Assembly (NCBI GenBank): GCA_964567675.1
Contig: CAZMNP010000074.1
Coordinates: 2,923 to 66,922 of the forward strand
Direction: 5' to 3'
Source: an uncultured Actinomycetes bacterium
GTDB lineage: Bacteria > Actinomycetota > UBA4738 > HRBIN12
Length of the DNA: 64,000 nt
In this document: positions 31,111 to 63,700 of the stretch, in pieces
Position numbering within the stretch: position 1 is the first letter of the stretch
Layout: each line of letters starts with the position of its first letter
The notes under the pieces: generated by a model
Database searches by the model: none
Seen by the model: only the letters and a program-made list of their open reading frames with translations
What the model was told of the DNA's origin: nothing
Position numbers and translations under genes: made by a program

Positions 31111-31174
31111 CCGGCTTTCCTACCACATAGGTGCGGCGGCTCCGTGGCCGACCGAGGCGCTAGCATGCCCGCCC

Positions 31175-31435: not shown

Positions 31436-32125
31436 ATGCACTATCATCCGGCCGTGAGCCAGCGGCCGATCCCCGAGGCCACCGTCGGGCGACTCCCCAT
31501 CTACCTTCGGGCGCTCGTCGAGATCGCCGAGAACGGCTCGACCACCGTGTCGTCCGAGGCGCTCGCGGCGGCCTCGGGCGTGAACTCGGCGAAGGTCCGC
31601 AAGGACCTCTCGCACCTCGGCTCGTACGGGACTCGGGGGGTCGGCTACGACGTCGCGTACCTGATCCATCAGATCCGGCGCGAGCTCGGCCTGACGCAGC
31701 ACTGGCCCATCGTGATCGCCGGGATCGGGAACCTCGGGCACGCACTCGCCAACTACCGGGGCTTCGCCGAGCGAGGCTTCCGAACGGCGGCGCTCGTCGA
31801 CAACGACCCGGGCAAGATCGGGGAGGACGTCGCAGGCCTCGCGATCCGTCCGCTGGAGGACCTGCGCGCGATCGCGCGGGAGCACGAGACGCTGATCGGC
31901 GTCATCTCGACGCCGGCCGTCGCCGCCCAGCAGGTCGCCGACGCCATGGTGGAAGCCGGGATCCGATCGATCTTGAACTTCGCGCCGGCGGCGCTCGCGG
32001 TCCCCGAGGGCGTCTCGGTGCGGAAGGTGGACCTGGCCGTCGAGCTCCAGATCCTCACGTACTACGAGCAGCGCAATGCCGCGCTCGTGGACGTGAAGCG
32101 GCGGGGCCGAGCCCAGACCGCCTGA
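31436..32125 (+). CDS. rex: redox-sensing transcriptional repressor Rex
   Basis: The protein has an N-terminal wHTH (RLPIYLRAL..) and a Rossmann NADH domain (IVIAGIGNLGHALANY). Confidence 0.85.
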   Translation: MHYHPAVSQRPIPEATVGRLPIYLRALVEIAENGSTTVSSEALAAASGVNSAKVRKDLSHLGSYGTRGVGYDVAYLIHQIRRELGLTQHWPIVIAGIGNLGHALANYRGFAERGFRTAALVDNDPGKIGEDVAGLAIRPLEDLRAIAREHETLIGVISTPAVAAQQVADAMVEAGIRSILNFAPAALAVPEGVSVRKVDLAVELQILTYYEQRNAALVDVKRRGRAQTA

Positions 32126-32947: not shown

Positions 32948-33015
32948 GATCGTGGTGAGCCCGCCCTTGAGCAGGGTCTCGCAGGGGATCTCGAATCCGA
33001 CGCATGACTGGGCGA

Positions 33016-33756: not shown

Positions 33757-33775
33757 CAGATCGCGAGCACTTCTC

Positions 33776-35427: not shown

Positions 35428-35451
35428 CGTTCCTCCTCTTCGAGCGGTCCC

Positions 35452-36222: not shown

Positions 36223-36241
36223 CCCGTCCTTCCCCCTCGTC

Positions 36242-36640: not shown

Positions 36641-36663
36641 GGGCGGACCTTCCTATCCGTTCC

Positions 36664-37026: not shown

Positions 37027-37243
37027 CCGACAGCCATCCCCACGCGGATCGCGCTTCCCCCGATCGTCGGTCGCCCTCGCGGCCGGCTGATTATAGACAT
37101 CGGCCCTTCCGCCACCCGGCGATGCGCCGGCCCCGCGGTGTCGCTGCCACCGCTCGTGAAAAGCTTCACAAGCACGCCTCACTATGGCAAGGATCGGCCG
37201 AGAGGTGCAACCGCATCCCCCCGGGATCGCACCTCACCCGGCG

Positions 37244-38005
37244 ATGCGCATCCCTTCCTACACTGGCCGCGTGATCGCCGACTTCGTGCAGGAGGGCCTC
37301 GGAGCCTGGTGGGCGCCCGCGCTCGCTTTCGCCGCCGGCCTGGTCTCGTTCGCCTCCCCTTGTGTGTTCCCGCTCGTGCCGGGCTATCTGTCCTTCGTCA
37401 CGGGCGAGGCGCGCGACGAACGGCGGCCGGTCGTGCCGATCCTGCTGTTCATCGCGGGTTTCGCCGCCGTGTTCACGGCCCTCGGGGCGTTCACGGGATC
37501 GGTGACCCGGATCCTGCGCTCGCCTGCGGGCATCCGGATCTCGGGCGGGATCATCATCGCGTTCGGAGTCCTGATGGTGCTGTATGCCCTGCGCGTCGGG
37601 TCGCCGGCGCTGTTCGCGGAACGCCGCCCGCTGCTCCAGCGGGTCCGGCCCGGACCGGCGTGGGCCTTCCCGCTCGGCGTCGCGTTCGGCGCCGGGTGGA
37701 CGCCGTGCATCGGACCGGTGCTCGCGGGTGTGCTCGGCATCGCGGCTGCCCAGGGGGGGTCGTTCCGCGGTGCGGTGCTCCTGTTCGTGTACTCGGCCGG
37801 GTTGGGGCTCCCGTTCCTGTTGGTCGGCGTGGGCGTGCGGCGACTCATGGGGGCGCTCGCGTTCGTCCGGCGCAACTACCACTGGATCGCGGGCGGCTCG
37901 GGCGTGGTCATGATCGCGATCGGAGTGCTCGTCGCGACGAACCAGTGGACGCTGCTGCTCGGGCCAGTCCTTCGCGCGATCCGGCAATTCGAGCCTCCGC
38001 TCTGA
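37244..38005 (+). CDS. ccdA: cytochrome c biogenesis protein CcdA (DsbD family)
   Basis: The CxxC motif lies in TM1 (SFASPCVFPLVPGY). Six TM helices are predicted. I chose the ATG at 37244. Confidence 0.8.
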   Translation: MRIPSYTGRVIADFVQEGLGAWWAPALAFAAGLVSFASPCVFPLVPGYLSFVTGEARDERRPVVPILLFIAGFAAVFTALGAFTGSVTRILRSPAGIRISGGIIIAFGVLMVLYALRVGSPALFAERRPLLQRVRPGPAWAFPLGVAFGAGWTPCIGPVLAGVLGIAAAQGGSFRGAVLLFVYSAGLGLPFLLVGVGVRRLMGALAFVRRNYHWIAGGSGVVMIAIGVLVATNQWTLLLGPVLRAIRQFEPPL

Positions 38006-44496: not shown

Positions 44497-46320
44497 TCAG
44501 GCGAGCGCCGCGAACGGCGATGCCGCGTCGACGGCGACCGCGGCGAAAAGCAGCCCGAGGTAGACGATCGAGAAGCGGAACAGGCGCATCGAGTCCGCCT
44601 TGGACGCACCCAGCCAGAGCCGAAGCGCTCGCCAGACGAACCAGCCACCGAGCACGAGCGCGGCGACCGCGTAGACCGGCCCCATGTCGCCGAAGGGCAC
44701 CAGCAGGAGCGACGTCCCGAACAGCACGAGGGAATACAGCAGGATCTGCTTGCGTGTCTCCTCCGGCCCTCGCACCACGGGAAGCATCGGGATGCCGGCC
44801 GCCGCGTAGTCGTCGCGGTAGCGCATCGCGAGCGCCCAGAAATGCGGCGGCGTCCAGACGAACACGATCGCGAACAGGATCCACGCGGGTACCCCGACCG
44901 TCCCGGTCACGGCGGCCCACCCGACGAGCGCGGGAGCGGCACCCGCGGCGCCCCCGATGACGATGTTCTGGACGCTCGTGCGCTTTAGCCACATCGTGTA
45001 GACGAAGACGTAGAAGGCGATCGCCGCGAGGGCGAGGCTCGCCGCCAGCACGTTGACGACGATCGAGAGGAACAGGAACGCGGCGGCCCCCAGGACGTAC
45101 CCGAAGGCGAGCGCGTTCTCCGGGGCGATCCGCTGTGCCGGGAGCGGACGCCGGCGTGTCCGCCGCATCACCTCGTCCACGTCGCGATCGAGGTAGCAGT
45201 TGATCGCGTTCGCCGAGCCCGCGGCGACGGCGCCGCCGCCAACGGTCGCCAGGATCAACAGGATGGAGGGCAGGCCGCGCTCGGCGAGCATCATCGCCGG
45301 CACGGTCGTGATCAACAGCAGGACGATGATCCGCGGCTTCGTGAGTTGGAAGTACGCGGCCGTCGTCTCGCGGAGCGAGGTGCGCTTGCCGTTCCTCCGG
45401 GCGTCCACGTCCGAGTGCGCGTGTCCGCCCCGGCGGGTTTCGTTGCGTGCGGCGACCCAGAGTGCGACCAGCGTCGCCCAGATCGCGGCCGACAGGGCCA
45501 CGTGGGCGGTCACCGCCGCGGGCTGCAGGCGGGACCAGACGTTTGCGGCACCGACGAGGATCTGCGCGACGATCAGTGCCAGCGCGACCAGGGACAGGAT
45601 CGAGAGCGGCCGGTTCCGCGGCCGGGTCCAAGCCCGGATGAACACGAAGAGCACCAGCAGGGCTGCCGCTGCGGCCAGGACACGATGGGCGAACATCCAG
45701 GTGGCGGCCCCACCGAGCGCCGGCACGAGGCGTCCGTCCATGAGCGGCCAGTCGCGGAAGGCCAGGCCCGAGCCGGTCGCCCGGACGTACGTGCCGATGA
45801 CCAGCGCGCCGAACGTCACGAGCGCGGTCCAACCGGCCAGCGCGACGAAACCGTCACCGGGCGAGGGCCGTTCGCGTCGGCGGCCGCGACCGAACGCATA
45901 GAGCGCCTCCGCGGCGTTCGCCACGACGACGGCGACGAGCGCCATCGCGAACGCGAAGTGGACGGTCACCCAGGCCGGGTCGAGATCGGTCTGCACCACG
46001 ATGCCTCCGAGCACCGCCTGCATGAGCACGAGGGGGACGGCGGCGACGGACAACCGGAAGATCGTCCGCTGCTCCTTGTGCCGGCGCCACGCCTCGACGG
46101 CCATCCACGCGATCAGGACGACGAGGACGAACGCGACGAACCGGTGCGAATACTCGATCCAGGACTTAGCCGTCGGGTAGGGGAGCCAGCGGTCCGGCCC
46201 GCACTTGGGCCAGCTGGTGCAGCCGAGGCCCGACTCGGTCGCCCGGACGAGCCCGCCCACGCCGAACAGGAGGACGGTCGTCGAGGCGGTCGCGATCGCG
46301 AGCTTCTGGAAGCGCGTCAT
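44497..46320 (-). CDS. ctaAB: fused heme A synthase (CtaA, N-terminal) and protoheme IX farnesyltransferase (CtaB/CyoE, C-terminal)
   Basis: The N-terminal 320 aa carry the paired Cys in loop 1 (CTSWPKC) and the His-containing helices of CtaA. The C-terminal 290 aa have UbiA-family motifs ([26 protein letters not shown]). I chose the ATG at 46320. Confidence 0.8.
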
Positions 46321-46394
46321 GCGAAAGGGTGGTTTGCGTTCGCGGGAACGATAGCAGCCGCCGCGACGACGCATCGTCTTGCGATACTCACGGC

Positions 46395-47288: not shown

Positions 47289-47728
47289 TGCAGGTTCGAG
47301 ACGTGGACGCCACCGCCGCCCGGCGGATGTTCGCGGGGCTTCCGGTCGTGAGCGTCGCGACGTTGAACGCCGACGGGTCGCCCCACGTGGTCCCGCTCTG
47401 GTTCGTGTGGACCGCCGAGGCGATCTTCGTCTCGACCCGGCGCGAGGGACGGACGTGGGCGAACGTGTCGGCCGACCCGCGCGTCGCGCTGTCGATCGAT
47501 CTCGGCCGGGCTTGGGTCGAGATCGCCGGGATCGAGGTACGCGGCCGTGCCGAGCTCCTGCCCGCCGAGGACGCCGGGATGCGCAAGCCGCTGTCGGCGT
47601 GGCACGAGAAGTACCGCCCGCTGCTGACGGGGGATGGGTTCCCGAGGTTCGCCGAGGAGATCCGCGGACTCGGGTTCCTCCGCGTGACACCCGAGCGGAT
47701 CGCCGCCTGGGACCACGCGCGCGAGTAG
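47288..47728 (+). CDS. pyridoxamine-5'-phosphate-oxidase-family / F420-dependent PPOX-class protein
   Basis: A 146-aa protein with the split-barrel pattern (PHVVPLWFVW...VALSID). The ATG overlaps the upstream stop. Confidence 0.6.
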   Translation: MQVRDVDATAARRMFAGLPVVSVATLNADGSPHVVPLWFVWTAEAIFVSTRREGRTWANVSADPRVALSIDLGRAWVEIAGIEVRGRAELLPAEDAGMRKPLSAWHEKYRPLLTGDGFPRFAEEIRGLGFLRVTPERIAAWDHARE

Positions 47729-47796
47729 CGGTCCGGCTCCGCCGTCCGCCGCCCCGAGGCCCGGTTTGAACCGGTCTACGCGGCGCGACTAGGGTT

Positions 47797-47812
47797 TGTG
47801 ACGCGTTTCACA
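47797..47812. promoter_or_regulatory. perfect CRP/GlxR-type palindrome TGTGA-CGCGTT-TCACA
   Basis: The site can be read directly in a locally AT-rich patch. Confidence 0.5.
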
Positions 47813-47828
47813 AGTCGTTAGCATCCTT

Positions 47829-47844
47829 TGTGAATTTTTTCACA
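47829..47844. promoter_or_regulatory. perfect CRP/GlxR-type palindrome TGTGA-ATTTTT-TCACA
   Basis: The site can be read directly. Its centre is 32 bp from the first site. It lies 20 nt upstream of the GTG at 47864. Confidence 0.5.
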
Positions 47845-47863
47845 AGCGGTGGGGGGAGATCCG

Positions 47864-49114
47864 GTGTCGAGCCCGAGCGCGCACATCGAGACCGATGTCC
47901 TGATCGTCGGCGCCGGCCCCGGCGGCTCGACGGCCGCGTACCACCTCGCGCGGCACGGCATCGACGTCACCCTGATGGACAAGGCGTCGTTCCCCCGCGA
48001 GAAGGTCTGCGGCGACGGGCTCCCGCCGCGCGCGGTCGTCGCCGTGCAGCGCATGGGGATCGACACCGACGATCCCCGGTTCGAGCGACACGGCGGACTT
48101 CGGATCTACTCGCGCAAGACGATGCTCGAGCTCCCCTGGCCGGCGCTCGAGGACTTCCCCGCATCCGGCCTGACCATGACCCGGTACGGCTTCGACGAGA
48201 TCCTCGTCCGCCAGGCCGAGAAGGCAGGCGCCGGACTCCGGGAAAGGATGGAGGCGATCTCCCCGGCCATCGACAACGGCTGGGTGACGGGCGCGAGGGT
48301 GCGCGACCTCGAGCGGGACGAGGAGGTGGACGTCCGGGCCCGCTTCGTGATCGCGGCCGACGGCGCCGCATCGCGGTTCGCAGCCCAGGCGGGGGTCCGG
48401 CGGGACCCGACGAAGCCGCTCGGCATCGCCGCGCGCCGCTACTACCGGATCGACCGGCATCCCGGCCCATGGCTCGAGGTGTGGATGGACCTGTGGGAGG
48501 GCGACGAGATCATGCCCGGCTACGGATGGCTGTTCGCTCTCCCCGACGGCTCGGTGAACCTTGGCGCCGGCGTCCTCAACACGTTCAAGAGCTTCAAGGA
48601 CGTCTCTGCCCCGCGGGTGTTCGAGGCGTTCGCGAAGATGTTGCCCGAGGAATGGGGTGTCAGCGAGGAGACCGCCGAAGGACGGGCGCTCTCCGGTCCG
48701 TTGCCGATGGGAGGGTCCCGGGTCCCCACCGCGGTCCCGGGGATGTTGGTCGTCGGGGACGCCGCCGGGCTCGTGAATCCCTTCAACGGCGAGGGGATCG
48801 CGTACGCGATGGAAACGGGTGAGCTCGCGGCCGAGCTCATCCACGAGGCCCTCGTGCGCGACCGGCCGGGCATCGCGCAGCTGTATCCGGCCATCCTTCG
48901 CGAGCGGTACGCACGGTACTTCCGCGTCGGGAACAACTTCGTGCGGGCCATCGGCCACCCGGCCGTGATGCGGACGCTGACCGAGTACGGGCTGCCCCAG
49001 GAGTGGCTCATGCGGTTCGCCCTGCGGGTGATGGGGAACCTGACCGACGGGCGGAAGGGCGACTTCCAGGACAAGCTGATGAACGCGATCGTCCGGCTCG
49101 CGAGGGCCGCTTAG
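47864..49114 (+). CDS. geranylgeranyl-reductase-family FAD-dependent oxidoreductase (possible menaquinone reductase)
   Basis: An FAD site is present ([15 protein letters not shown]), with the GGR family C-terminus. The GTG at 47864 has a GGGGGAGA RBS. The GTG at 47849 is an alternative start. Confidence 0.75.
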
Positions 49115-49123
49115 GAGGATCGG

Positions 49124-49561
49124 ATGGAGCTCGCCGAGTACCTGCCGATCGTGATCTTGGCGACGCTCGCGCTCGCGTTCGCCGTGTTTTCCCTGTCGGC
49201 GTCGGCTCTGCTCCGTCCCCACAAGCCGACGCCGGCCAAGCTCGCGCCGTACGAGTGCGGCATCGTCCCCGAACGACTGCCGAAGGGAGAGCGGTTCAGC
49301 GTCAAGTTCTACGTCGTCGCGATGCTGTTCATCATCTTCGACATCGAGACGATCTTCCTGTTCCCCTGGGCCGTCGGGTTCCGCCAGCTCGGCCTGTTCG
49401 GGCTCGTCGAGATGGCCGTGTTCATCGCGCTCGTCTTCGTCGCCTACGTCTATGTCTGGAAGAAGGGCGGTCTGGACTGGCAGCGCGACGAGCGGCGCCG
49501 GGCGGGAGCAGCGGTGGATACGGCTCGAGCCGACGCGCGGGAGCTGACCCATGCCGGTTGA
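49124..49561 (+). CDS. nuoA: NADH-quinone oxidoreductase subunit A, with ~25-aa C-terminal extension
   Basis: The NuoA core is present (YECGIVPE...[15 protein letters not shown]). An AGGAGG RBS precedes the ATG. Confidence 0.85.
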
Positions 49562-49575
49562 GCGGGAGCCGACCC

Positions 49576-49587
<12 letters not shown>
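49538..49587 (+). repeat. 25-bp imperfect tandem duplication (cgggagCtgacccatgccGgttgag / cgggagCcgacccatgccCgttgag) spanning the nuoA stop and nuoB start
   Basis: This is a direct tandem repeat with 2 mismatches. Copy 2 supplies the nuoB ATG. Confidence 0.6.
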
Positions 49588-50094
<507 letters not shown>

Positions 50095-50125
50095 CCGGCC
50101 GCCGGACGGTGGAGCGGCGCGCCGC

Positions 50126-50623
50126 GTGAGGGTCGACGAGCTCGCCGCGAAGGTGCGCCCGCGACACCCCGATGTCGTCGTCGCCAGGGGCGAGGCGATG
50201 GTCGTGGTCGAACGCGGGGAGCTCCTGGGGGCCCTCGCCGAGCTGCGGGACGACCCCGCGCTCGAGCTCGACTTCCTCTCGAGCGTGACGGCGACGGACT
50301 GGCCCGATCGCGACCCGCGGTTCTGGATCTCCTACGAGCTCTACTCGCTCGCTCACCGACACCGGCTCCGGGTGCAGGTCGGTCTCCCGCACGACGACCC
50401 GAGCGTCCCCTCGGTCGTCGGTCTGTTCCCGACGGCGAACTGGCATGAACGCGAGACCTACGACTTCTACGGCATCGTCTTCGACGGCCATCCCGATCTC
50501 CGGCGGATCCTGCTGCCGGACGGGTGGCGGGGGTGGCCGCTGCGCAAGGACGAAGAGCTCGGCGGCGTCGACACCAGGTATCAGGGCGCGTTCATCCCAC
50601 CCGTCGACAAGAGGACCACGTGA
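50126..50623 (+). CDS. nuoC: NADH-quinone oxidoreductase subunit C
   Basis: The 30-kDa subunit pattern is present ([22 protein letters not shown]). Confidence 0.85.
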
Positions 50624-51870
50624 GCGACGACGCGCTGTGGACCGGCGAGCTCCGCCAGGAGACCTTGGTCATCAACATGGGCCCGCAGCACCCGTCGACG
50701 CACGGGGTGCTGCGGCTCCTGCTCGAGCTCGACGGCGAGACGGTCGTGACGTGCACGCCGATCATCGGCTACCTCCATACCGGCATCGAGAAGAACACCG
50801 AGTACCGCACCTGGCAGCAGGGTGTCGCCTACGTCACGCGAGCGGACTACCTGTCCCCGTTCTTCAACGAGACCGCGTACTGCCTCGCCGCCGAGCGCCT
50901 GCTCGGGATCGAGGCGCCCCCACGCGCCCAGGTGCTCCGCGTGCTCTTCATGGAGATGAACCGGATCGCCTCGCACCTGGTCTGGCTCGCCACAGCCGGG
51001 ATGGAGCTCGGCGCGATCAGCCTCATGCTGTACGGCTTCCGCGAACGCGAGGAGATCATGGAGATCTTCGAGGCGGCGACGGGACTTCGGATGAACCACG
51101 CGTACGTCCGGATCGGCGGCGTCATCATGGACCTGCCCGATGGCGGGCTCGACCAGGTCGGCGACTTCCTCGAGATGATGCCGGGCCGGATCCGCGAGTA
51201 TGAGAACCTGCTCTCGAAGAACCCGATCTGGCTCGAGCGCAACGTCGGTGTCGGCGTCCTGCCGGTGGCCGAGGCCCTTTCGTTCGGCGTCACCGGACCG
51301 ATCCTTCGCGCTTCCGGCCTCGCCCGGGACGTCCGGAAGGACGAGCCCTATTGCGGCTACGAGACCTACGAGTTCGACGTGCCGGTGCGCGAGGCCGGGG
51401 ACTGCTACGCGCGGTACGAGGTCCGGATCGACGAGATGCGGCAGTCCCTGCGGATCGTCGAGCAATGCGTGGAACGGCTGCGCGAGCCCGGTCTCGTGAT
51501 GATCGAGGACCCGAAGCTTCGCTGGCCCGCCCAGCTCGAGGTGGGACCGGACGGGATCGGGAACTCCCAGCGATACATCACGCACATCATGGAGGAGTCG
51601 ATGGAGGCCCTCATCCATCACTTCAAGATCGTGACCGAGGGCATCTCCGTCCCGGCGGGGGAGGTCTACCTCCCGGTCGAGTCCCCACGCGGCGAGCTCG
51701 GCATGTTCGTGGTGTCGGACGGCAGCAACAAGCCGTACCGCGTCAAGATCCGAGATCCCTCATTCGTGAACCTGCAGGCGGTTCCCGAGATGGTGGACGG
51801 CGGCCTCGTCGCCGACACCGTCGCGGTGATCTCGAGCGTCGACCCCGTGATGGGCGGGGTTGATCGCTGA
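50620..51870 (+). CDS. nuoD: NADH-quinone oxidoreductase subunit D
   Basis: The 49-kDa subunit pattern is present ([14 protein letters not shown]...). The GTG overlaps the nuoC stop. Confidence 0.9.
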
Positions 51871-52436
51871 TGCCCGTGCTCGCCGAGGACCTCCGCGGCA
51901 AGGCCGAGGAGATCAAGGCCCGCTACCCGCAAGGCCGCGAGCGCTCGGCGATCCTGCCGCTGCTCTACCTCGTGCAGTCCGTCGAGGGACACGTCTCGCG
52001 CGACGGGCTGCGTGAGGTGGCCGAGCTCCTTGGGCTCACGACGGCGGAGGTCGAGGCGGTCGCGACGTTCTACACGATGCTGCGGCTGGCCCCGACGGGG
52101 ACACATCTCGTGAACGTCTGCACGAACCTGTCCTGCGCACTCCGCGGGGCGAAAGTCGTGTACGAGACCGCCCACGACGTTACGGGGATCTCGAACGGTT
52201 CCGCCGTCTCGGACGACGGCTTGTTCTCGGTCGCCGAGGAGGAATGCCTCGGCGCGTGTGATGCCGCGCCCGTCGTCCAGATCGACTTCGCGAACCACGA
52301 CCGCGTCACGCCAGACCGGATGCGAGAGCTGATCGAGCAGGTCCGCGCGGGCCAGGTCCCGGCCCCGTCGCGCGGAGAAGCGCCGGCGGATCTCCGGCAC
52401 GCCTCGCGGATCCTCGCCGGGATCGAGGCCGACTGA
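51870..52436 (+). CDS. nuoE: NADH-quinone oxidoreductase subunit E
   Basis: The 2Fe-2S thioredoxin-like fold is present (CTNLSC, CLGACDAAP). Confidence 0.85.
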   Translation: MPVLAEDLRGKAEEIKARYPQGRERSAILPLLYLVQSVEGHVSRDGLREVAELLGLTTAEVEAVATFYTMLRLAPTGTHLVNVCTNLSCALRGAKVVYETAHDVTGISNGSAVSDDGLFSVAEEECLGACDAAPVVQIDFANHDRVTPDRMRELIEQVRAGQVPAPSRGEAPADLRHASRILAGIEAD

Positions 52437-53767
52437 TGGCCGAGAGGATCATCACGGCGAACTGGGGGAACCCCGACGTGGTCGGTATCGACGGCTACAT
52501 GGCCGCCGGTGGGTACGGGTCCCTGCGCACGGCGCTCGGGATGACCCCGGCCGACCTGATCGACGTGGTCAAGGCGTCGGGCCTGCGCGGTCGCGGGGGC
52601 GCCGGCTTCCCGACGGGCGTGAAGTGGTCCTTCGTGCCGCAGGACACGGGGAAGCCGACCTACGCGGTCGCGAACTTCGACGAGTCCGAGCCCGGCACGT
52701 TCAACAACCGCGAGCTGATCGAGCGCGATCCCCACCAGTTCCTCGAGGGACTCGCGATCGCCACGTACGCGATCGGCAGCCACGAGGCGTACGTGTACTG
52801 CCGGGGAGAGTTCCTGTGGCCGGACCAGGTCTTGGAACGCGCGATCGCCGAGGCGTACACGAAGGGCGTGTTCGGCGACGACGTCCTCGGCACCGGCTAT
52901 CAGATGAAGGTGATCCAGCACCGCGGCGCCGGCGCGTACATCTGCGGGGAGGAGACGGCGCTGCTCTCCTCGCTCGAGGGTTTCCGCGGGCAACCCCGGC
53001 TCCGGCCGCCGTTCCCGGCGGTCGAGGGCCTCTACGGATGCCCGACGCTGATCAACAACGTCGAGACCCTGTGCAACGTCCCGCACATCGTCCGCAACGG
53101 CGCCGCGTGGTTCGCCGGTATCGGCCCCGAGAAGTCGCCCGGGACGAAGGTCTTCAGCGTCTCGGGCAAGGTGGAGCGTCCCGGGAACTACGAGCTCCCG
53201 ATGGGGACGACGCTCGGGACCCTGCTCGAGGAGCACGCGGGCGGTGTCCTCGGCGGAAAGCGCCTGAAGGCGTGGACGCCGGGGGGCTCCTCGACGCCGA
53301 TGCTCACCGACGAGCATCGGGACGTCGCGCTCGACTTCGAGTCCGTCGCAGCCGCGGGATCGCTCCTGGGGACCGGGGCCATCATCGTGATGGACGAGAC
53401 CGATTGCATCGTCGAGGCGACGCGCCGGCTCGTCGCCTTCTACGCGCACGAGTCCTGCGGGAAGTGCACCCCGTGCCGTGAGGGGACGTGGTGGGTGAGT
53501 CGCGTCCTGGGCCGGATCGAGTCGGGCTACGGACGGCCCGAGGACCTTCCGCTCCTGGACGACATCGGGAAGAACATCCTGTTCCGCGCCTTCTGCGCGC
53601 TCGCCGACGGCGCGGTGAGCCCGATCCAGTCGAGCCTCAAGTACTTCCGGGACGAGTACGACCAGCACATCGCGGAGCGCCGGTGCCCGTTCACGGGCGT
53701 TGGTCCCGGCGTCCAGAAGCACGGCCGCGAGATCGCCGAACCGGGGCTGTCGGAGGTCCTGGGATGA
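52436..53767 (+). CDS. nuoF: NADH-quinone oxidoreductase subunit F
   Basis: The FMN/NADH site (GRGGAGFPTG) and the 4Fe-4S site (ESCGKCTPCREG) are present. Confidence 0.9.
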   Translation: MAERIITANWGNPDVVGIDGYMAAGGYGSLRTALGMTPADLIDVVKASGLRGRGGAGFPTGVKWSFVPQDTGKPTYAVANFDESEPGTFNNRELIERDPHQFLEGLAIATYAIGSHEAYVYCRGEFLWPDQVLERAIAEAYTKGVFGDDVLGTGYQMKVIQHRGAGAYICGEETALLSSLEGFRGQPRLRPPFPAVEGLYGCPTLINNVETLCNVPHIVRNGAAWFAGIGPEKSPGTKVFSVSGKVERPGNYELPMGTTLGTLLEEHAGGVLGGKRLKAWTPGGSSTPMLTDEHRDVALDFESVAAAGSLLGTGAIIVMDETDCIVEATRRLVAFYAHESCGKCTPCREGTWWVSRVLGRIESGYGRPEDLPLLDDIGKNILFRAFCALADGAVSPIQSSLKYFRDEYDQHIAERRCPFTGVGPGVQKHGREIAEPGLSEVLG

Positions 53768-56199
53768 CCGGCGCGCCCGCGGAGCTCGTCACGCTCACGG
53801 TGGACGGCAAGGAGGTGACCGTCCCGAAGGGAACGCTGATCATCCGCGCCGCCGAGCAGCTCGGGGTCGAGATCCCGCGCTTCTGCGACCACCCGTTCCT
53901 CGAGCCCGTCGGCGCCTGCCGCCAGTGCTACGTCGAGATCGAGGGGCAGCGGAAGCTGTTCACCTCGTGCACGACCGAGGTCGGCCCGGGCATGGTGGTG
54001 AAGACGCAGTACTCGTCGGAGGTGGCCCAGGACGCCCAGGTCGCGAACCTGGAGTTCCTGCTGCTCAACCACCCGCTCGACTGTCCGATCTGCGACCGGG
54101 GCGGCGAGTGCCCGCTGCAAGACCAGGCGCTCGCGTTCGGTCCCGGCGAGAGCCGGTACCGCGAGCCCAAGCGCGTCTACGAGAAGCCGATCGCGCTCTC
54201 GCCGCTCGTCGCGCTCGACCGCGAGCGCTGCGTGCTGTGCGCGAGGTGCACGCGCTTCTGCGACGAGATCAGCGGCGACCGCTTCATCGAGTTGTTCGCG
54301 CGGAGCGCCGGCGAGCGGGTGTCGATCGCGGCGGGGGAGGACTTCCGCTCGCCGTTCAGCGGGAACACGGTGCAGATCTGCCCCGTCGGCGCGCTCACCT
54401 CGACGACGTATCGATTCGCCGCGCGCCCGTTCGACCTGTCGACGGCCGACTCGGTCTGCGGACACTGCTCCTCCGGGTGCAACGTGCGGGTCGACCTGCG
54501 CCGAGGCGAGGTCGTTCGAGTCCTGGCCCGCGACAACGTGGACGTGAACGATGCCTGGATCTGCGACAAGGGGCGGTACGCGTTCCGCCACGCCGACCTC
54601 GACACGCGCGTCACGACCCCACTCCTGCGCGATCCGGGGCTCGAGCCGGTGTCGTTCGACGAGGTGTTCGGCGAGATCGCCCGGTGGTCGGGCGGGGGGC
54701 GGGTCGCGTTCCTCACGGGTGGACGCCTGCCCGACGAGGACGCCTACGCGCTCTCCAAGCTTGCTCGGACGGCGTTCGGAACGAACGACGTGGATCATCG
54801 CCGCGCGCCGCACGGCGGACAGGCCGAAGAGCTCGCTGCCGCGACGCCGCTCGCCACGACCTATCGCGACGTCGAGCGCGCGAAGGTGATCCTCGTCGCC
54901 GGGCTCGACGCCGAGCAGGAGGTGCCGATCCTGCACCTTCGGATCCGGAAGGCGGCCCGCCGGGGCGCGAAGGTCTTCGTGATCCACCCACGGACGACGC
55001 GGCTGCGCGACGTCGCCGAGCATCGGCTCTGCCGCCCCGAGCACCAGACCTACGTGCTGGAGCGGATCCATGACGGCGATGACGGGGCCGAGACCTTCGA
55101 GGGGCGCGTCGCCGCCGCGCTGCGCGAGGCCGGCGCGGCCGCCGTCGTGATCGCCGGGGAGCGGCTTGCCGAGCACCCGCTTGCCGCAGACGTCGCGCTC
55201 TCGGTCGCGCAGCGGTTCGGCGCGCGCTTCGCCTTCGTGACGCGGCGCGCGAACGATCGGGGAGCGCTCCGCGCCGGGCTGCACCCCGCGATGCTTCCCG
55301 GCGGCCGCCGCGTCTTGAACGACGTGGAGCGCGGCGAGGTCGAGGCCGTCTGGGGCCTGGTTGGCACCGGTGGTCCGGGACGCTCGGCGCGACAGATCCT
55401 CGAGGCGTGCGCGCGACGCGAGATCGAGGTCCTGTTCCTGATCGGGGCGGATCCGCTCCGCGACTTCCCCGATGGGGGACTCGCCCGGCGCGCCCTCGCG
55501 AACGTCCGGTTCAAGGTGGTCCAGGGGCTGGAGCTCGGCGAGCTCGAGCCGTACGCGGACGCCTTCCTGCCCGCGGCCGCCTGGTCCGAACGCGAGGGCA
55601 ACGTGACCGACTGGGAGGGGCGTTCCCAGCGGATGCGGCCGGTCCGCGGCCCGCTCGGCCTGTCACGGCCGGATTGGGAGATCTTCGCCGGCCTCGCCGA
55701 GGCGATGGGACGTGGGCTCGGGTTCGACTCGCTCGAGGACCTCCGGGAAGAGGCCGCAGGACTGCTCGCGCCTCGCGCCGTTCCGGTGCGCGGCACGGCG
55801 TGGACCGGGACCGGGCGGCCGCAACTGCTCGGCGACCTCACGTTGTTCTCGTACCCGCTCCTCGTGGACGAGGGTCGCATGCTCGAGGGCGCCACCGAGC
55901 TCAAGGCCGCGCTGGAGGATCCCGCGTTCGCCGAGATCCACCCCGACGACGCGGAGAAGCGCGGCGTGCAGGATGGAGCACGCGTTCGGGTGAAGACGGA
56001 GGCGGGCGAGCTCGTCCTGCCGGTCCGGATCACGCGAGACGTGGCGGCCGGCTCGGTCTTCGTGCCGTTCAATCAGCCGGGCGCGAGGGCGAACACGGTG
56101 CTTACGGGCGGGTTCGTCGGGCCTGTGACGGTCGCGCTCGCGGAAGAGGGGGCCCCAAGCAACGGAGCGGTCGCTCAGACGGAGGAGGTGGCCTCCTGA
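53764..56199 (+). CDS. nuoG: NADH-quinone oxidoreductase subunit G
   Basis: The N-terminal 2Fe-2S and 4Fe-4S motifs ([20 protein letters not shown]) and a molybdopterin-like domain are present. Confidence 0.9.
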
Positions 56200-57320
56200 T
56201 GGACTGGCTCGACTGGCTCCTGATGGTCGTCCGCGTCGTCGTCGTCTTCTTCGCACTCCTGATCATGGTGATGCTCCTCATCTGGGTCGAGCGGAAGGTG
56301 ATCGCCGACATGCAGACGAGGGTGGGCCCGATGAGAGCGGGCCCGCGAGGGGTGCTGATCACGCTCGCCGACGGCGTCAAGCTCTTCTTCAAGGAGGGCA
56401 TCACCCCGACCCTCGTCGACCGGCCCGTCTACGCGATCGCGCCCGTGATCGCGATGCTTCCCGCGTTCCTGTCCTTCGCGGTCATCCCGTTCGGGACGGG
56501 CATCGTGGTGTTCGGTCGCGAGGTCCCGTTCCAGCTCGCCGACCTCAACGTCGGGATCCTGTGGATCCTCGCGATGGGCTCGCTGATGGTGTACTCGATC
56601 GTCCTCGCGGGCTGGTCGAGCGGTTCCAACTACCCGCTGCTCGGGGCCATCCGGAGCTCGGCGCAGATGATCAGTTACGAGGTCGGCATGGGGCTCGCGC
56701 TGATCGCGGTGCTCATGTACTCGGGCTCGCTCCGGATGTCCGAGATCGTGTCGAGCCAGGACCAGGTCTGGAACGTGATCCCGCAGTTCCCCGCGTTCGT
56801 CATCTACCTGATCGCCGGGCTCGCAGAGACGAACCGCCCGCCGTTCGACCTTCCCGAGGCCGAGTCCGAGCTCGTCGCCGGGTACCACACCGAATACAGC
56901 GGGATCAAGTTCGCGATGTTCTACCTCGGCGAGTACCTCAACACCGTGACCGTCGCGGCCGTCGCGACGACGATGTGGCTCGGCGGCTGGCGCGGGCCCG
57001 CGCCCGACGTCCTTCCGTGGGTCTGGCCTCTGCTCTGGTTCCTGCTGAAGGTCCTCGTCGTGATCTACGTCTACATCTGGATCCGCGCGACACTCCCGCG
57101 GATCCGCTACGACCGGCTCATGGCGTTCGGCTGGAAGTTCCTGATCCCGTTCGGCCTGGTGTGGGTGCTCGCGACGGGCGCGGTCGTGGTCCTGCCCGAC
57201 GTCTACGGTCGGCGCACGGTCGTCACCGGCGCCGCGATCCTCGTCGGAGCGGTGCTCGTCCTGTCCCTGATCTGGCCGCTGTTCGCCCGCAGGCCCGAGG
57301 CGGAGCAGGCGGCGCGGTGA
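56199..57320 (+). CDS. nuoH: NADH-quinone oxidoreductase subunit H
   Basis: The ND1 family pattern is present ([19 protein letters not shown]...). Confidence 0.9.
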
Positions 57321-57886
57321 ACGAGGACCCGCGCGTGCCGCCCTCGCAGCCCGCCGAACGCCCCGCCGAGCTGTCGCCACCCACCGGCCCCCCGGCGAAC
57401 CGCCCGCGGATCGACCTGGGCTCGGCGGTGGTCGCGATCGCGAAGGGCATGGGCACGGTGTTCAAGCAGATCTTCCGTCCCGACGTCACCGAGCGCTATC
57501 CGACCGAGATCGTGCCGCCACCGGCCCGCAGCCACATCGGTCGTCATCTCCTGAACCGTCACGAGAACGGCCTGGAGAAGTGCATCGGCTGCGAGCTCTG
57601 TGCCTTCGCCTGCCCGGCCGACGCGATCTGGGTCGTCGGTGAGGACAACGACCCGGAGAACCCGACGAGCCCGGGGGAGCGGTTCGCGAAGGACTACCAG
57701 ATCAACTACCTCCGTTGCATCATGTGCGGCCTCTGCGTCGAGGCCTGTCCGACGCGAGCGCTCACGCTGACGAGCTTCTACGAGATGTCGTTCACGTCGC
57801 GAGAGGACGCCGTCCTCACCAAGGAGCAGCTCCTGGAGCCTCCTCCACCGCTCGGGACCGCACCCGGGACCGAGGAAGGCCGGTAG
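57317..57886 (+). CDS. nuoI: NADH-quinone oxidoreductase subunit I (start uncertain; conserved core begins near 57430)
   Basis: Two 4Fe-4S motifs are present ([12 protein letters not shown] and [12 protein letters not shown]). A Pro-rich segment in front of the core may not be translated. Confidence 0.8.
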
Positions 57887-58473
57887 TGCCGCTCGACAAC
57901 GTCGTCTTCTGGGTGTTCGCGCCGGTGTCGGTCGCGAGCGCGATCGCGATGCTGCTCCAGCGGAACGCCGTCCACGCGGCGCTGTTCCTGATCGTGAACT
58001 TCTTCACGATCTCGGTGTTCTACCTGGTCCTGGGCGCCTCGTTCCTGTTCGCCGTGCAGATCATCGTCTACGCGGGCGCGATCATGGTGCTCTTCCTGTT
58101 CGTGCTGATGCTGCTCGGGGTCGACCGCGACGAGCCGCTGATCGAACGCCTCAAGGGTCAGCGGCCGATGGCCGTCCTGCTGGGCGCCGGGATCTTCCTC
58201 GAGCTGTTCTTCGCGATCCGCGCAGGCATCGGGTTCGCGACGAAGGCGCCGGCGGGGTTCGACGAAACCGTGAATCGGGGCGGGAACGCCGCCGCCCTCG
58301 CCCGGGTGCTGTTCCGCGACTACTTCTTCCCGTTCGAAGTGACCTCGATCCTGTTGATCATCGCGGCCGTGGCCGTGATGGTTCTCGCGTCCCGGCAGGC
58401 ACCGGCGATCACCCGTGCGGAGCAGGCGACCGCGGCGGCGGCCGAGGCCCGCGCGACGGAGCCGGCACCGTGA
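57886..58473 (+). CDS. nuoJ: NADH-quinone oxidoreductase subunit J
   Basis: The ND6 family is recognisable. It starts with GTG. Confidence 0.8.
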
Positions 58474-58775
58474 GGACGCCGATCTCCTACTTCCTGGTGC
58501 TCTCGGCGCTGTTGTTCTCGATCGGGACGGTGGGCGTTCTCATCCGCCGGAACGCGCTCGTGATCTTCATGTCGGTCGAGCTCCAGCTGAACGCGGTGAA
58601 CCTCGCGCTGGTCTCGTTCAGCCGGATGCACGACAACCTGGACGGCCAGGTGCTGGCCTTCTTCTCGATGGTCGTCGCGGCGGCCGAGGTGGTCGTCGGC
58701 CTGGCCATCATCCTGAACGTCTATCGGCGCCGCCAGAGCGCGAGCGTCGACGACGCGAGCGTCTTGCGTGGGTGA
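58470..58775 (+). CDS. nuoK: NADH-quinone oxidoreductase subunit K
   Basis: The ND4L family is recognisable (101 aa). Confidence 0.9.
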
Positions 58776-60669
58776 CGCGGTGCTCGATCAGGCGTGGCTG
58801 ATCCCCGCGTTGCCGCTGGCCGGGGCGGTGGTGAATCTGTTCTTCGGGCGGCGCCTTGGCAAGACGGCGGGATGGGTCGCATCGGCGACGGTCGGGCTCG
58901 CCTTCGCGATCGGCGTGGCCGTCCTGCTCGACCTCCTCTCGCTGCCCGCCGAGCAGCGGGAGCACGTCGTTGAGCTGTTCCCGTGGATCGATGCCGGGGG
59001 CCTCAGCCTTCGCGTCTCGTTCCTGGTCGACCCGCTGTCCCTCACGATGGTGCTGGTCGTGACCGGCGTCGGGGCGCTCATCCACGTCTACGCGGTCGGC
59101 TACATGGACGGAGATCCGCGGTTCGAGCGCTTCTTCGCCTACCTGAACCTGTTCGTCTTCTTCATGCTCGTCCTCGTCCTGGCCAACGACTACCTCCTGC
59201 TGTACCTCGGTTGGGAGGGCGTCGGCCTCTGCTCGTACCTGTTGATCGGGTTCTGGTACGAGCGGCCGAGCGCCGCGAGCGCCGCGAAGAAGGCGTTCGT
59301 CACGACACGGATCGGCGACGCCGCCATGATGCTGGGGATCGTCCTGATCTTCGTGCACTTCGGATCGCTGGAGTTCGGTGAGGTTCTGGTCGAGCGGACC
59401 GCCGTGGGTCCGCTGATCGCGCCGTCCGAGGGCCTCTACACCGCGATCTCGCTCCTGCTGCTCGCGGGCGCCGTCGGCAAGTCGGCGCAGATCCCGCTGC
59501 ACGTCTGGCTTCCGGACGCGATGGAGGGACCGACGCCCGTCTCGGCCCTGATCCACGCGGCGACGATGGTGACGGCCGGCGTCTACCTGGTCGTGCGGTC
59601 GCACGTCCTTTTCGAGGGATCCGGGATCGCCCTGACGGTGGTGCTCGTCATCGGGCTCGTCTCTGCGATCTACGCGGCGCTCGCTTCGATCGGGCAGTTC
59701 GACATCAAACGCGCGCTCGCGTACTCGACGATGAGCCAGATCGGATTCATGTTCTTCGCCGCGGGGATGCGCTTCTACGCGGGCGCGATGCTCCTGCTCG
59801 TCTGTCACGCCTTCTACAAGGCGTTGCTGTTCCTCACGGCGGGCAACGTCCTGCACGGGCTCCACGACGAGGCCGACCTGCGCCGGATGGGCGGCCTGCG
59901 GGAGGAGATGCCCGTCACGGCCCCGTTGTTCGCGATCGGTGCGCTCGCCCTGGCCGGCATCCCTCCGCTCGCGGGGTTCTTCGCCAAGGACCACATCGTG
60001 AACTTCGCGGCGGAAAGTGGGCGCGTCGCCGCGTGGGTCGTGGCGTCGGTCGGCGCGTTCCTTTCCGCCCTGTACATCGCGCGGCCGCTGTTCCTCGCGT
60101 TCTTCGGCACCAAGCGGAACGACGCACGCGCCCACGAGGCGCCGTGGGCGATGAACGCTCCGCTCGTCGTCCTCGCGGCAGGAGCGGTCCTGGGCGGACT
60201 CGTCCTCGGTCTCCAGGCGGAGGGCGGCCTCCTCGAGCGGTTCCTCGAGCCGGTGATCGGCGCGGCCGAGCACGGGCACCTCGGGCTCTCCGAAGCCGTC
60301 CTCGTCGGCATCTCGATCGTCCTCGCGGTGCTGGCGGTCCTAGTTGCCTGGTACGTGTGGGCGTCCGGGCGCGTGAACTGGGCGGCCTTCCCCGAGCGCC
60401 AGCCCGAGCTCGCCGCCTGGCTGGCGAACGCGTTCTACATCAACGCGTTGTACGCGTGGCTGGTTCGGACGGCCGGGATGGGGGTCGGGCGGGCGTTCCG
60501 AACGGTCGATGACCGGGTCGTCGACGGGGCCGTCAACGAGGTCGCCGAGGAGATCGGCCAGGCCTCTCGCCTCGCCTCGGTGCTGCAGTCGGGATACGTC
60601 CGTTCGTACGCGCTCGCCTTCCTGCTCGGGGCCGCGGCGCTCCTCCTGTACCTGGGACTGAGGTTCTGA
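58768..60669 (+). CDS. nuoL: NADH-quinone oxidoreductase subunit L
   Basis: The ND5 antiporter-like family is recognisable. Confidence 0.9.
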
Positions 60670-60671
60670 CG

Positions 60672-62255
60672 ATGCCCTGGTTGAGCGTCCTCGTGTTCCT
60701 GCCGCTGGTCGGGATCCCCGTCCTCATGCTGTGGAAGGGGATGGGAGACGCGCGGGCGAAGTGGGTGACGCTCGCGGTGATGGCCGCCGACCTCGTCGTC
60801 GCCATGGGCGTGCTCGGCGCGTTCGATCCGGAGCGGTCGGGCTATCAGCTCGTCGAGCAGGTGAGCTGGGTGCCGTCGGTGGGCCTTTCCTACCTCGTCG
60901 GGGTGGACGGGTTCAGCATCTGGCTCGTGGTGCTCACGGCGTTCATGTTCCCGGTCGGGCTGATCGCCGCATGGAGGACGGAGCACCGCGTGCGCCTGTT
61001 CATGGGGCTCTCGCTGCTCCTTGAGACCGTCGTGCTGGGTTCGTTCTGTGCCCTGGACCTCCTCCTGTTCTTCGTGTTCTTCGAGGCGCTGCTCGTCCCG
61101 ATGTTCCTGATCACCGGCGTCTGGGGTTCCTCGCGCAGGGTGTACGCGAGCCTGAAGTTCTTCCTGTTCACGATGTTCGGATCCGCGTTCATCCTCGTCG
61201 CGACGCTCTATCTCTGGTTCCAGACGTCCGAGCAGTTCGGGAGCGGAAGCTTCGACATCCGGCAGATGGAACAGCTCTCGCTCGGCGTCGGCGTCCAGCG
61301 ATGGCTGTTCCTCGCCTTCTTCATCGGTCTTGCCGTGAAGGTCCCGATCTTCCCGCTCCACACATGGCTTCCCGACGCGCATACCGAGGCGCCGACGATG
61401 GGCTCGATCGTCCTTGCGGCGCTGCTGCTGAAGGCCGGCCCGTATGGGATCCTGCGGTTCAACCTCGACCTGTTCCCCGAGGCGTCCCGCTACTTCGCCG
61501 ACGCGATCAACGTCCTCGCGGTCGTGGGCATCGTGTACGGCGCGATCGTGGCGATGATGCAGACGGACGTGAAGCGTCTGGTGGCGTACTCGTCCGTCAG
61601 TCACATGGGCTTCGTGATCCTCGGCATCTTCACCTTCACCCCGGAGGGCATGAGCGGAGCCGTGATCCAGATGGTGAACCACGGCCTGTCGACCGGTCTC
61701 CTGTTCTTCGCGATCGGGATGCTGTACGAGCGCACGCACACGCGCGAGATGGGCGAGATGGGCGGCCTGGGCCGGGTCACGCCCTGGATCGCGGCGGCGT
61801 TCCTGGTCGCCACGCTCTCCTCGATCGGCCTGCCCGGCCTGAACAACTTCGTGGGCGAGTTCCTGGTCGTCCTCGGGGCGTTCGCGACGAACCGGCTCCT
61901 CGGCGCGCTCGCGGTGACCGGCGTCGTGCTGGGCGCGATCTACATGCTTTGGGCGTTCCAGCGGACGTTCCAGGGGGCCGTCCCCGAGCGCTTCCGGAGC
62001 CTGCACGACATGGTCCCGCGCGAGCTCGCCGCCGTCGTCCCCATCGTGGCCGCGATGCTGTTCATCGGTGTGTACCCGAAGGTCGTGCTGGACCGCATCA
62101 ACCCGTCGTCGGAAGGGGTCGTGCGCTGGGTGCGATCCGTCGACCTCGAGCAGCCGGGTCTCCCGGGCGGCCTGCGTGCACGGATCCAGCCCGACTACCG
62201 CCCGCCGGAGGGTATCGATGTGGCGACCCCGGCTGGCGAAGGGGAGATCCCGTGA
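60672..62255 (+). CDS. nuoM: NADH-quinone oxidoreductase subunit M
   Basis: The ND4 family is recognisable. Confidence 0.9.
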   Translation: MPWLSVLVFLPLVGIPVLMLWKGMGDARAKWVTLAVMAADLVVAMGVLGAFDPERSGYQLVEQVSWVPSVGLSYLVGVDGFSIWLVVLTAFMFPVGLIAAWRTEHRVRLFMGLSLLLETVVLGSFCALDLLLFFVFFEALLVPMFLITGVWGSSRRVYASLKFFLFTMFGSAFILVATLYLWFQTSEQFGSGSFDIRQMEQLSLGVGVQRWLFLAFFIGLAVKVPIFPLHTWLPDAHTEAPTMGSIVLAALLLKAGPYGILRFNLDLFPEASRYFADAINVLAVVGIVYGAIVAMMQTDVKRLVAYSSVSHMGFVILGIFTFTPEGMSGAVIQMVNHGLSTGLLFFAIGMLYERTHTREMGEMGGLGRVTPWIAAAFLVATLSSIGLPGLNNFVGEFLVVLGAFATNRLLGALAVTGVVLGAIYMLWAFQRTFQGAVPERFRSLHDMVPRELAAVVPIVAAMLFIGVYPKVVLDRINPSSEGVVRWVRSVDLEQPGLPGGLRARIQPDYRPPEGIDVATPAGEGEIP

Positions 62256-63700
62256 TCCGCACGCCGGCGATCGATCTGTGGCCGATCCTGCCCGAGCTGA
62301 TCCTCGTGGGGACCGGGATCGTCGTGCTCCTGTGGGGCGCGATCGCTCCGTCCGTCCGTTCGCCGGCGCTGCTGTCCGTCTCGCTGGTCGGTGTGGCCGG
62401 CGCGGCGGGCGCGTCGATCCGGCTCTGGGACTGGGAAGGAGCCACGACCGTCCTCGGCGGATCCGTGGCGGTGGACCGGTTCGGCGTGGTCGTTCGGTTG
62501 ATCCTGCTCGCGACGGCGGCGATCGGCCTGTTCTACGGGCATCACTACTTCGAGCGCTCGGGCGAGTCGCGGGCGGAGTTCTTCCCACTCGTGCTGTTCG
62601 CGACGTCGGGGATGACTCTGATCGCGATCGCGTCCGAGCTCATCCTGGTGTTCCTCGCGCTCGAGATCCTGTCGCTCGCGCTCTACGTGCTGACCGGGTT
62701 CTCGCGGCGCATCGGTTCGGTCGAGGGCGCCATGAAGTATTTCCTCCTGGGCGCGTTCTCTTCCGCGTTCTTCCTGTTCGGCATCGCGATGGCGTACGGC
62801 GCCACCGGGACGACACGGCTGCCGGAGGTCGCGCAGGCCCTGTCGGGGCGAACGGAGGGTCTCGCGCTTGCCCTCGCGGCGACGGGGCTCCTCGCGGTGG
62901 GCTTCGCGTTCAAGGTCTCGGCCGTCCCGTTCCACATGTGGACGCCCGACGTCTACCAGGGGGCGCCAACCGCGGTGACGGCGTTCATGTCGGCCGGCAC
63001 GAAGGTCGCCGGTTTCGCCGCGCTGATGCGCGTGTTCAACGTGGCGTTCCAGCCGCTCGCCTGGGATTGGCGGCCACTCGTCTGGACGCTGGCCGCGGTC
63101 TCGGTGGTCGTGGGGATCCTCTTCGCGATCGCGCAGACGGACGTGAAGCGGCTGCTCGCCTACTCGAGCATCAGCCACGCCGGATTCGTCCTCACGGGCC
63201 TGGTGGCGACTGGCGAGAGCGGCATGAGCGCCGCCCTGTATTACCTGGTCGCGTACGCCATGACGATCCTCGGCGCCTTCGGGGTCGTGATGCTCGTGTC
63301 CTCGCGAGGCGAGCGCCGGACGTCGCTGTCGTCGTATGCCGGACTCGGGTCCCGCAGCCCGGTTCTGGCGGGTCTGCTCGCGCTCTTCTTGCTGTCGCTC
63401 ACCGGTATCCCACCGACCGCGGGCTTCGTCGCGAAGGTGGAGGTCTTCCGGGCCGCGATCGATGCCGGCGCCTGGCCGCTCGCGCTGATCGGCGTCATCG
63501 CGAGCGTGGTGGCCGCGTTCGTGTACCTCCGCCTCATCGTGCTGATGTTCATGCAGGAGCCGGAGGGTGAGCCCGAGACGGACGAGTCGGTCCTCCCGCG
63601 CGTCGTCGTCGCGATCCCGGCGATCTTGGTGCTCGTGTTCGGCGTGTTCCCCAGCCTCCTGTTGGGGTTCCTGGACCGGGCGGCGGTGCTCCGATGGTGA
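62252..63700 (+). CDS. nuoN: NADH-quinone oxidoreductase subunit N
   Basis: The ND2 family is recognisable. The GTG at 62252 overlaps the nuoM stop. Confidence 0.85.
   Translation: MIRTPAIDLWPILPELILVGTGIVVLLWGAIAPSVRSPALLSVSLVGVAGAAGASIRLWDWEGATTVLGGSVAVDRFGVVVRLILLATAAIGLFYGHHYFERSGESRAEFFPLVLFATSGMTLIAIASELILVFLALEILSLALYVLTGFSRRIGSVEGAMKYFLLGAFSSAFFLFGIAMAYGATGTTRLPEVAQALSGRTEGLALALAATGLLAVGFAFKVSAVPFHMWTPDVYQGAPTAVTAFMSAGTKVAGFAALMRVFNVAFQPLAWDWRPLVWTLAAVSVVVGILFAIAQTDVKRLLAYSSISHAGFVLTGLVATGESGMSAALYYLVAYAMTILGAFGVVMLVSSRGERRTSLSSYAGLGSRSPVLAGLLALFLLSLTGIPPTAGFVAKVEVFRAAIDAGAWPLALIGVIASVVAAFVYLRLIVLMFMQEPEGEPETDESVLPRVVVAIPAILVLVFGVFPSLLLGFLDRAAVLRW

Follow-up and report, generated by a model that had tools for sequence, protein, structure and literature searches.

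Two palindromes of the form TGTGA-N6-TCACA, situated directly upstream of an operon that carries a geranylgeranyl-reductase-family gene and nuoA-N, are very probably tandem operators of the redox-sensing repressor Rex, with Rex as the principal regulator of that operon. The stretch of DNA analysed (64 kb in all, referred to simply as the window) also contains a rex gene and a third site of the same kind, and the motif was found to be conserved upstream of the corresponding genes in other actinobacterial loci. A sequence-only reading had assigned the palindromes to cAMP/CRP-family (GlxR/Crp) control. Given that Crp1 represses nuo in Mycobacterium smegmatis, this was a reasonable idea beforehand, but the sites fit the 18-bp Rex operator, their Rex-specific positions are conserved, and the outer position of the CRP core varies.

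The core 16-mers of the two sites are TGTGACGCGTTTCACA (site 1, 47797-47812) and TGTGAATTTTTTCACA (site 2, 47829-47844), 32 bp apart from start to start. When the 64-kb window was scanned for exact TGTGA-N6-TCACA, these were the only two matches, compared with 0.01 expected from 100 dinucleotide-preserving shuffles; a chance origin of the palindromes is effectively excluded. No other 61-nt stretch of the window is as poor in GC as the one around them, at 47782-47855 (42.6% GC against 69.2% for the whole window). Site 2 ends at 47844, 20 nt before the probable GTG start of the reductase gene at 47864, and the GTG is preceded by a Shine-Dalgarno sequence, GGGGGGAGA. The description given in the sequence-only reading was therefore accurate as to the palindromes, their spacing, the AT-rich island, the distance to the start codon and, as family and Pfam matches agree, the operon that follows. 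It had stopped short of the flanks. Both palindromes gain one conserved base per side (TTGTGA...TCACAA), and the arms of site 2 are flanked inward by A and T. With these extra outer bases and the inner A/T, the sites become 18-bp operators of the Rex type.

For Rex, the operator (ROP) given in the literature is the 18-bp sequence TTGTGAA-N4-TTCACAA (PMC5355995, PMC2883068). A search of the window with the corresponding 18-mer, TTGTGAANNNNTTCACAA, at up to three mismatches gave five matches, against 0.24 expected. Three of these are listed in the table as ROP1, ROP2 and ROP3. The deviation of ROP1 from the consensus counts against the Rex model, since site 1 has C and not A at the Rex-specific position 7. 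The other two matches (52108 and 57992) lie within nuo coding sequence. The match at 52108, with three mismatches, was considered as an internal operator and set aside. The match at 57992-58009, inside nuoJ, is a perfect, Rex-like palindrome (TCGTGAACTTCTTCACGA); at the two positions where it departs from the consensus it has common natural variants. It was likewise rejected as an internal operator: in frame it reads V-N-F-F-T, with preferred codons throughout, and it is not kept as a site outside the nearest relatives, a similar string being found in two close relatives only. The nuoJ palindrome is probably a coding by-product, though it could be an internal roadblock site. When the CRP core TGTGA-N6-TCACA was searched for in the same window at up to two mismatches, five matches were obtained compared with 10.45 expected, and three of the five were the ROP sites. 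Degenerate matches to the CRP core were thus not enriched in the window.

Features of the window that bear on the proposed Rex regulation (positions are those of the window)
Feature	Position	Strand	Remarks
rex, redox-sensing transcriptional repressor gene	31436..32125	+	NCBIfam NF003992 (Rex equivalog) 341.6 bits, cutoff 226; PDB Rex chains
ROP3, third candidate Rex operator, TCGTGAAAAGCTTCACAA	37154..37171	.	1 mismatch; divergent bc-type / ccdA-ctaC-ctaD intergenic region
-10-like hexamer TAGGGT, putative promoter P1	47790..47795	+	abuts ROP1; TAGG(G/C)T invariant in 9/9 aligned sequences
ROP1, probable distal Rex operator, TTGTGACGCGTTTCACAA	47796..47813	.	1 mismatch to TTGTGAA-N4-TTCACAA: C at position 7
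-10-like hexamer TAGCAT, putative promoter P2	47819..47824	+	between the operators; TAGCAT/TAGCCT in 7/9 aligned sequences
ROP2, probable proximal Rex operator, TTGTGAATTTTTTCACAA	47828..47845	.	0 mismatches to Rex consensus
Geranylgeranyl-reductase-family flavoprotein gene, first in operon	47864..49114	+	TIGR02032; Pfam FAD_binding_3
nuoA-N, NADH:quinone oxidoreductase (complex I)	49124..63700	+	Pfam NuoA, C, D, E, F, G, J, K, M

The product of the rex gene has 229 amino acids. It aligned from end to end with Rex proteins of known structure (5zz5 from Thermotoga; 3ikv, 1xcb and 2dt5 from Thermus; 2vt2 from Bacillus), with E values of 1e-42 to 1e-44, and both the DNA-binding segment RKDLS...G.RGVGY and the dinucleotide-binding motif GxGxxG were aligned between them. 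The window was also probed by tblastn with the sequences of Thermus Rex and Mycobacterium tuberculosis Crp, which served as probes only. The Rex probe gave one strong match, at 31.4-32.1 kb (E=1e-40). With the Crp probe no CRP homologue was found in the 64-kb window, the best match having an E value of 0.24. The rex gene adjoins a cytochrome bc-type cluster and is located 5 kb from ROP3 and 16 kb from the ROP1/ROP2 pair. No ROP that might serve autoregulation was present upstream of rex at up to three mismatches, which is a point against the Rex model. The rex gene is immediately preceded, on its own strand, by a small ORF (31166-31411) that is glutaredoxin-like and matches the Uxx-star family weakly, and before that an ORF judged by eye to resemble an ECF-type sigma factor lies on the opposite strand (30544-31110).

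Conservation of the nuo-side operator was examined in 80 loci carrying relatives of the reductase gene. These ranged from 75% identity, the best public relatives, from uncultured Actinomycetota MAGs, down to 44%, where Streptomyces, Nocardiopsis, Microbispora, Nonomuraea, Streptosporangium, Nocardioidaceae and others are represented. Most of the non-Streptomyces loci had a Rex-type 18-mer ahead of the reductase gene, often with no mismatch. When all 1.44 Mb of the 80 loci was scanned, 49 sites with at most one mismatch were found; every one of them (49/49) lay between -400 and +60 of the reductase start, and none elsewhere. The double site also occurs in the eight closest relatives (L001-L008), with the distal site 31-34 bp upstream of the proximal one. 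In these relatives the distal site is more degenerate than in the window, with two or three mismatches in several of them, and this too weighs against the Rex model. Four loci in which no ROP was detected (L020, L024, L040 and L067) were checked for CRP-type sites, and nothing informative emerged.

A profile of the sites selected by the Rex consensus (n=57) is partly circular. To remove this bias, upstream sites were re-selected on GTG-N8-CAC alone, which is the part common to the CRP and Rex models. In the sites so selected, position 1 was T at a frequency of 0.77, position 7 was A at 0.70, position 12 was T at 0.73 and position 18 was A at 0.68, compared with about 0.2 elsewhere. At position 2, the first T of TGTGA, T was found at 0.49 and C at 0.35. 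Conservation across orthologues hence extended beyond the CRP core, to the Rex-specific positions 1, 7, 12 and 18. Among the 57 Rex-selected sites, 53 had an exact GTGAA-N4-TTCAC and 29 an exact CRP 16-mer. When only distinct sites were counted (n=44), positions 7 and 12 were A and T in 41, and position 2 was C in 19. The centre of the site (N4) was variable, without a preference for TA.

In 20 loci, mostly of Streptomyces, other genes separate nuoA from the reductase gene by more than 2.5 kb, and the reductase gene has no ROP ahead of it. A ROP was found before nuoA instead in 19 of these 20 loci, at a distance of 92-156 nt, where the background rate is 0.034 per 430 nt. The commonest of these nuoA-side sites, TTGTGACCTGCTTCACAT, is the exact sequence footprinted with Rex in S. 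avermitilis (PMC5355995). At the nuoA1 promoter of that organism Rex protects -42 to -16 from DNase I, nuoA1 transcripts go up in a rex deletion mutant, ChIP places Rex on the promoter in vivo, and NADH lowers the binding of Rex (PMC5355995). Since the Streptomyces nuoA ROP is a proven Rex site, the sites of the window appear to be functionally orthologous to an experimentally proven Rex operator.

Crp1 and Crp2 of mycobacteria recognise TGTGA-N6-TCACA, and deletion of crp1 in M. smegmatis derepresses nuo 7- to 14-fold (PMC12713383, PMC7739888). With such a precedent for repression of nuo by Crp1 (PMC12713383), and with both sites of the window perfect with respect to TGTGA-N6-TCACA, it may be asked whether a cAMP-bound Crp dimer, without Rex, represses or activates nuo from these palindromes. 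Several of the results above are at odds with this. Positions 1, 7, 12 and 18, outside the core, are as conserved as the core itself, and the outer core base is replaced by C in the 19 distinct sites mentioned. GlxR sites are expected to show a central TA, and the bases inside the arms of E. coli CRP sites are T/A; the orthologous sites have no TA preference in their centre. Moreover, the degenerate core is not enriched, the window has a rex gene and no CRP homologue was found in it, and the identical site in Streptomyces is a proven Rex site (PMC5355995). We therefore rejected CRP/GlxR as the main explanation on the strength of the core enrichment, the Crp tblastn search, the conservation pattern and the literature, and consider control by CRP/GlxR without Rex very unlikely.

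Crp/GlxR homologues are generally widespread in Actinomycetota, and one of them may compete or co-regulate at the same sites with Rex as the main repressor, so that NADH/NAD+ and cAMP signals would be integrated at the complex I promoter. The two sites of the window keep the full CRP core, which many orthologues do not, and this, together with the repression of nuo by Crp in mycobacteria (PMC12713383), is what could be expected under such dual control. However, the Rex consensus includes the whole CRP core, so that any perfect Rex site matches the core perfectly as well. A match to the core does not tell the two families apart, and nothing was seen that selects for the CRP core beyond what Rex requires. 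Dual control of this kind is quite unlikely in our estimate.

The palindromes were also considered as RNA hairpins of the 5' leader, with a role in attenuation, stability or translation, in place of DNA operators. A stem of 7 bp closed by a 4-nt loop could arise from each 18-mer, and ROP2 probably falls in the transcribed leader. The stem positions were invariant without covariation, however: a compensating G at position 17 was present in only 2 of the 19 sites with C at position 2. Such independent change of the half-sites fits a protein-binding site and argues against a hairpin. There was no Rfam match in the leader, and the motif is also found at a divergent intergenic region and overlaps the -35 region in Streptomyces (PMC5355995). 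On the uncompensated half-site changes and the lack of an Rfam match the hairpin reading was rejected, and we hold it to be extremely improbable.

The operon that would be under the control of Rex begins with the reductase gene. Its product scored 227.7 bits with TIGR02032 (cutoff 158.8). With the MenJ equivalog model it scored 258.9 bits, below the cutoff of 700, so the role in menaquinone side-chain metabolism proposed in the sequence-only reading is not established. The start of nuoA is 9 nt past the reductase stop codon. Among the nuo genes, nuoB, H, I, L and N were assigned by the order of ORFs, and the end of the operon near 63700 is approximate.

A scan of 47600-47950 for E. coli-type sigma-70 promoters found none. 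The promoter model therefore rests on TANNNT hexamers conserved in alignments, and the hexamers, their promoter function and the positions of the transcription starts are all putative. The alignment comprised the window and eight close relatives (9 sequences). Some 18 nt before the hexamer of P1 there is a conserved TTG, which in the window forms part of TTGAAC (47766-47771). The putative start regions of P1 and P2 would fall near 47802 and 47831, respectively. For P2, the left half of ROP1, TTGTGA (47796-47801), is located 17 nt upstream of TAGCAT, at the position of a -35 element. In relatives with a single site (L009-L016), TAG(C/G)(A/C)T occurs 3-5 nt before the ROP, and in L011-L016 a TTGC-type -35 box stands at exactly the place taken in the window by the left half of ROP1. 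Among L014-L080, many distant lineages of actinobacteria have a -10-like hexamer, TAGACT, 19-21 nt upstream of the ROP, at a near-fixed distance. This spacing implies a conserved arrangement with the operator just downstream of the transcription start.

Rex of S. avermitilis is placed over the -35 element at nuoA1, atpI and rex, and at -3 to +25 at cydA1 (PMC5355995). The positions of ROP1 and ROP2 relative to the putative promoters would be repressor positions like those of the reported Rex targets, and do not suit a class-II activator. The sequence-only reading had foreseen transcription-factor operators over the reductase-nuoA-N operon and either repression or class-II control. The operators are supported and repression is the most likely mode, while class-II activation does not fit the geometry deduced here.

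We propose the following mechanism, in which the response to NADH and the direction of regulation are taken from what is known of the Rex family. At a low NADH/NAD+ ratio, Rex dimers would occupy both 18-bp sites. Rex on ROP1 would then cover the -35 and spacer region of P2 and perhaps the start region of P1, and Rex on ROP2 the start region of P2. RNA polymerase would be excluded or blocked, and the reductase-nuoA-N operon repressed. On build-up of NADH, its binding would close the Rex dimer, Rex would leave the DNA and the operon would be derepressed. More complex I could then be made, giving a greater capacity for re-oxidation of NADH. Through ROP3, the promoters of the bc-type genes, of ccdA-ctaCD, or of both would belong to the same Rex regulon. 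The target genes, nuoA-N and those of the bc-type/ccdA-ctaCD region, match the respiratory and NADH-oxidising functions known for Rex regulons.

A more elaborate arrangement may also be imagined for this uncultured clade, in which one 50-bp region of the complex I promoter holds a duplicated module of a -10 hexamer and a Rex operator, giving two tandem Rex-gated promoters, and a Crp-family protein competes with Rex through the perfect CRP core kept by both operators, integrating the NADH/NAD+ and cAMP signals. We regard it as unlikely. If true, it would link the Rex-controlled regulation of nuo in Streptomyces with the Crp-controlled one in Mycobacterium.

ROP3 has on its minus-strand side a cytochrome bc-type cluster (genes for a small membrane protein, a 4Fe-4S ferredoxin, a split cytochrome b, a Rieske protein and cytochrome c), and on its plus-strand side ccdA-ctaC-ctaD. 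Its conservation was followed in 80 metagenome loci anchored on a ccdA-like gene. Of these, 29 were syntenic, having the small membrane protein, ferredoxin and cytochrome b genes divergent from ccdA, and 51 carried distant ccdA homologues. Exactly one ROP at up to two mismatches was found in 23 of the 29 syntenic loci, always in the bc/ccdA intergenic region, and none in the 51 loci with distant homologues. In the five syntenic loci whose contigs extend so far, rex lies about 5 kb upstream. The sequence-only reading had suggested a search for its motif upstream of other respiratory genes such as cta and the bc operon. A motif does occur there, as ROP3 and its counterparts demonstrate, but it is that of Rex.

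Across the relatives, the distance of ROP3 to the minus-strand bc-type operon is steadier than that to ccdA, and by this the true target of ROP3 may be the bc-type operon. On the other side, in the region 37184-37273, homologues of the ccdA-like protein align only from about residue 30. A GTG there (near 37271) comes 6 nt after a TACACT hexamer, which suggests that the ccdA-like gene is shorter and possibly leaderless. The make-up of the bc-type cluster (32276-37032, minus strand) is unusual and differs from the canonical actinobacterial qcrCAB arrangement: the ferredoxin is of the 2x[4Fe-4S] type, the N- and C-terminal parts of cytochrome b are separate genes, as in b6/subunit IV, and there is a Rieske-like protein. 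It may be noted that a single ORF of 625 amino acids at 44497-46374 (minus strand) carries both a COX15-CtaA (heme A synthase) and a UbiA/CtaB (heme O synthase) domain, apparently through fusion of ctaA and ctaB.

In a high-GC actinobacterium, a perfect TGTGA-N6-TCACA thus need not be a CRP site, since the CRP core forms part of the Rex consensus. Rex and CRP sites can be told apart by positions 7 and 12 and by the outer T and A, and the Rex flanks should be checked before a site is assigned in Actinomycetota. In the present case this corrects a plausible mis-annotation of a Rex operator as a CRP site. Control of complex I by Rex appears to be conserved across many actinobacterial lineages, uncultured ones included, and the operator stays with the nuo promoter both where the reductase gene is joined to the operon and where it is not. 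In the clade of the window, this control would be reinforced by a second operator and extended to the bc/cta region. Three sites and their regulator within one window provide a seed of a regulon for annotating respiratory regulation in these MAG lineages.

The Rex/ROP system was first described in Streptomyces. The system of the window shares with the nuoA1-N1 ROP of S. avermitilis and S. coelicolor (PMC5355995) the 18-bp inverted repeat, complex I as the target, the Rex family of the regulator and the presence of rex in the genome. As in Streptomyces, moreover, the operators of the window would overlap promoter elements, in a position that implies repression. The two differ in that nuoA1 of Streptomyces has one operator with two mismatches to the consensus, whereas the window has two, 32 bp apart, with none and one. 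In the window, as in most non-Streptomyces lineages, the reductase gene is joined to the operon ahead of nuoA and behind the operators. Streptomyces has an autoregulated rex-hem operon, but in the window no hem genes follow rex and no recognisable ROP precedes it. Unlike the nuoA1 system of Streptomyces, the regulon of the window would also reach the bc-type/ccdA-ctaCD intergenic region.

The cydA1 promoter of S. avermitilis has one full ROP and a half-site, with protection by Rex from -3 to +25 (PMC5355995). It resembles the window in having more than one Rex-binding element at one respiratory promoter, and an operator over or after the transcription start, a putative one in the window. The window, however, has two full sites in place of a full site and a half-site, each after its own -10-like hexamer. 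In M. smegmatis, Crp1 (MSMEG_6189) activates cydAB through two TGTGA-N6-TCACA sites and represses nuo (PMC7739888, PMC12713383). That system has in common with the window the TGTGA/TCACA half-sites, the paired sites at a respiratory promoter and nuo as a target of repression. It operates with a CRP/FNR-family protein and cAMP, whereas Rex and NADH/NAD+ would be at work in the window. The cydA sites of M. smegmatis, at -58 to -101, have the geometry of an activator, and those of the window carry Rex-specific flanks conserved across orthologues. Repression of nuo by Crp1 in M. smegmatis (PMC12713383) and by Rex in Streptomyces (PMC5355995), through motifs with common TGTGA/TCACA half-sites, suggests that different lineages put different regulators on related nuo operators. 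The system of the window is a known type of complex I control by Rex; it differs from that of Streptomyces in degree and reveals no new mechanism.
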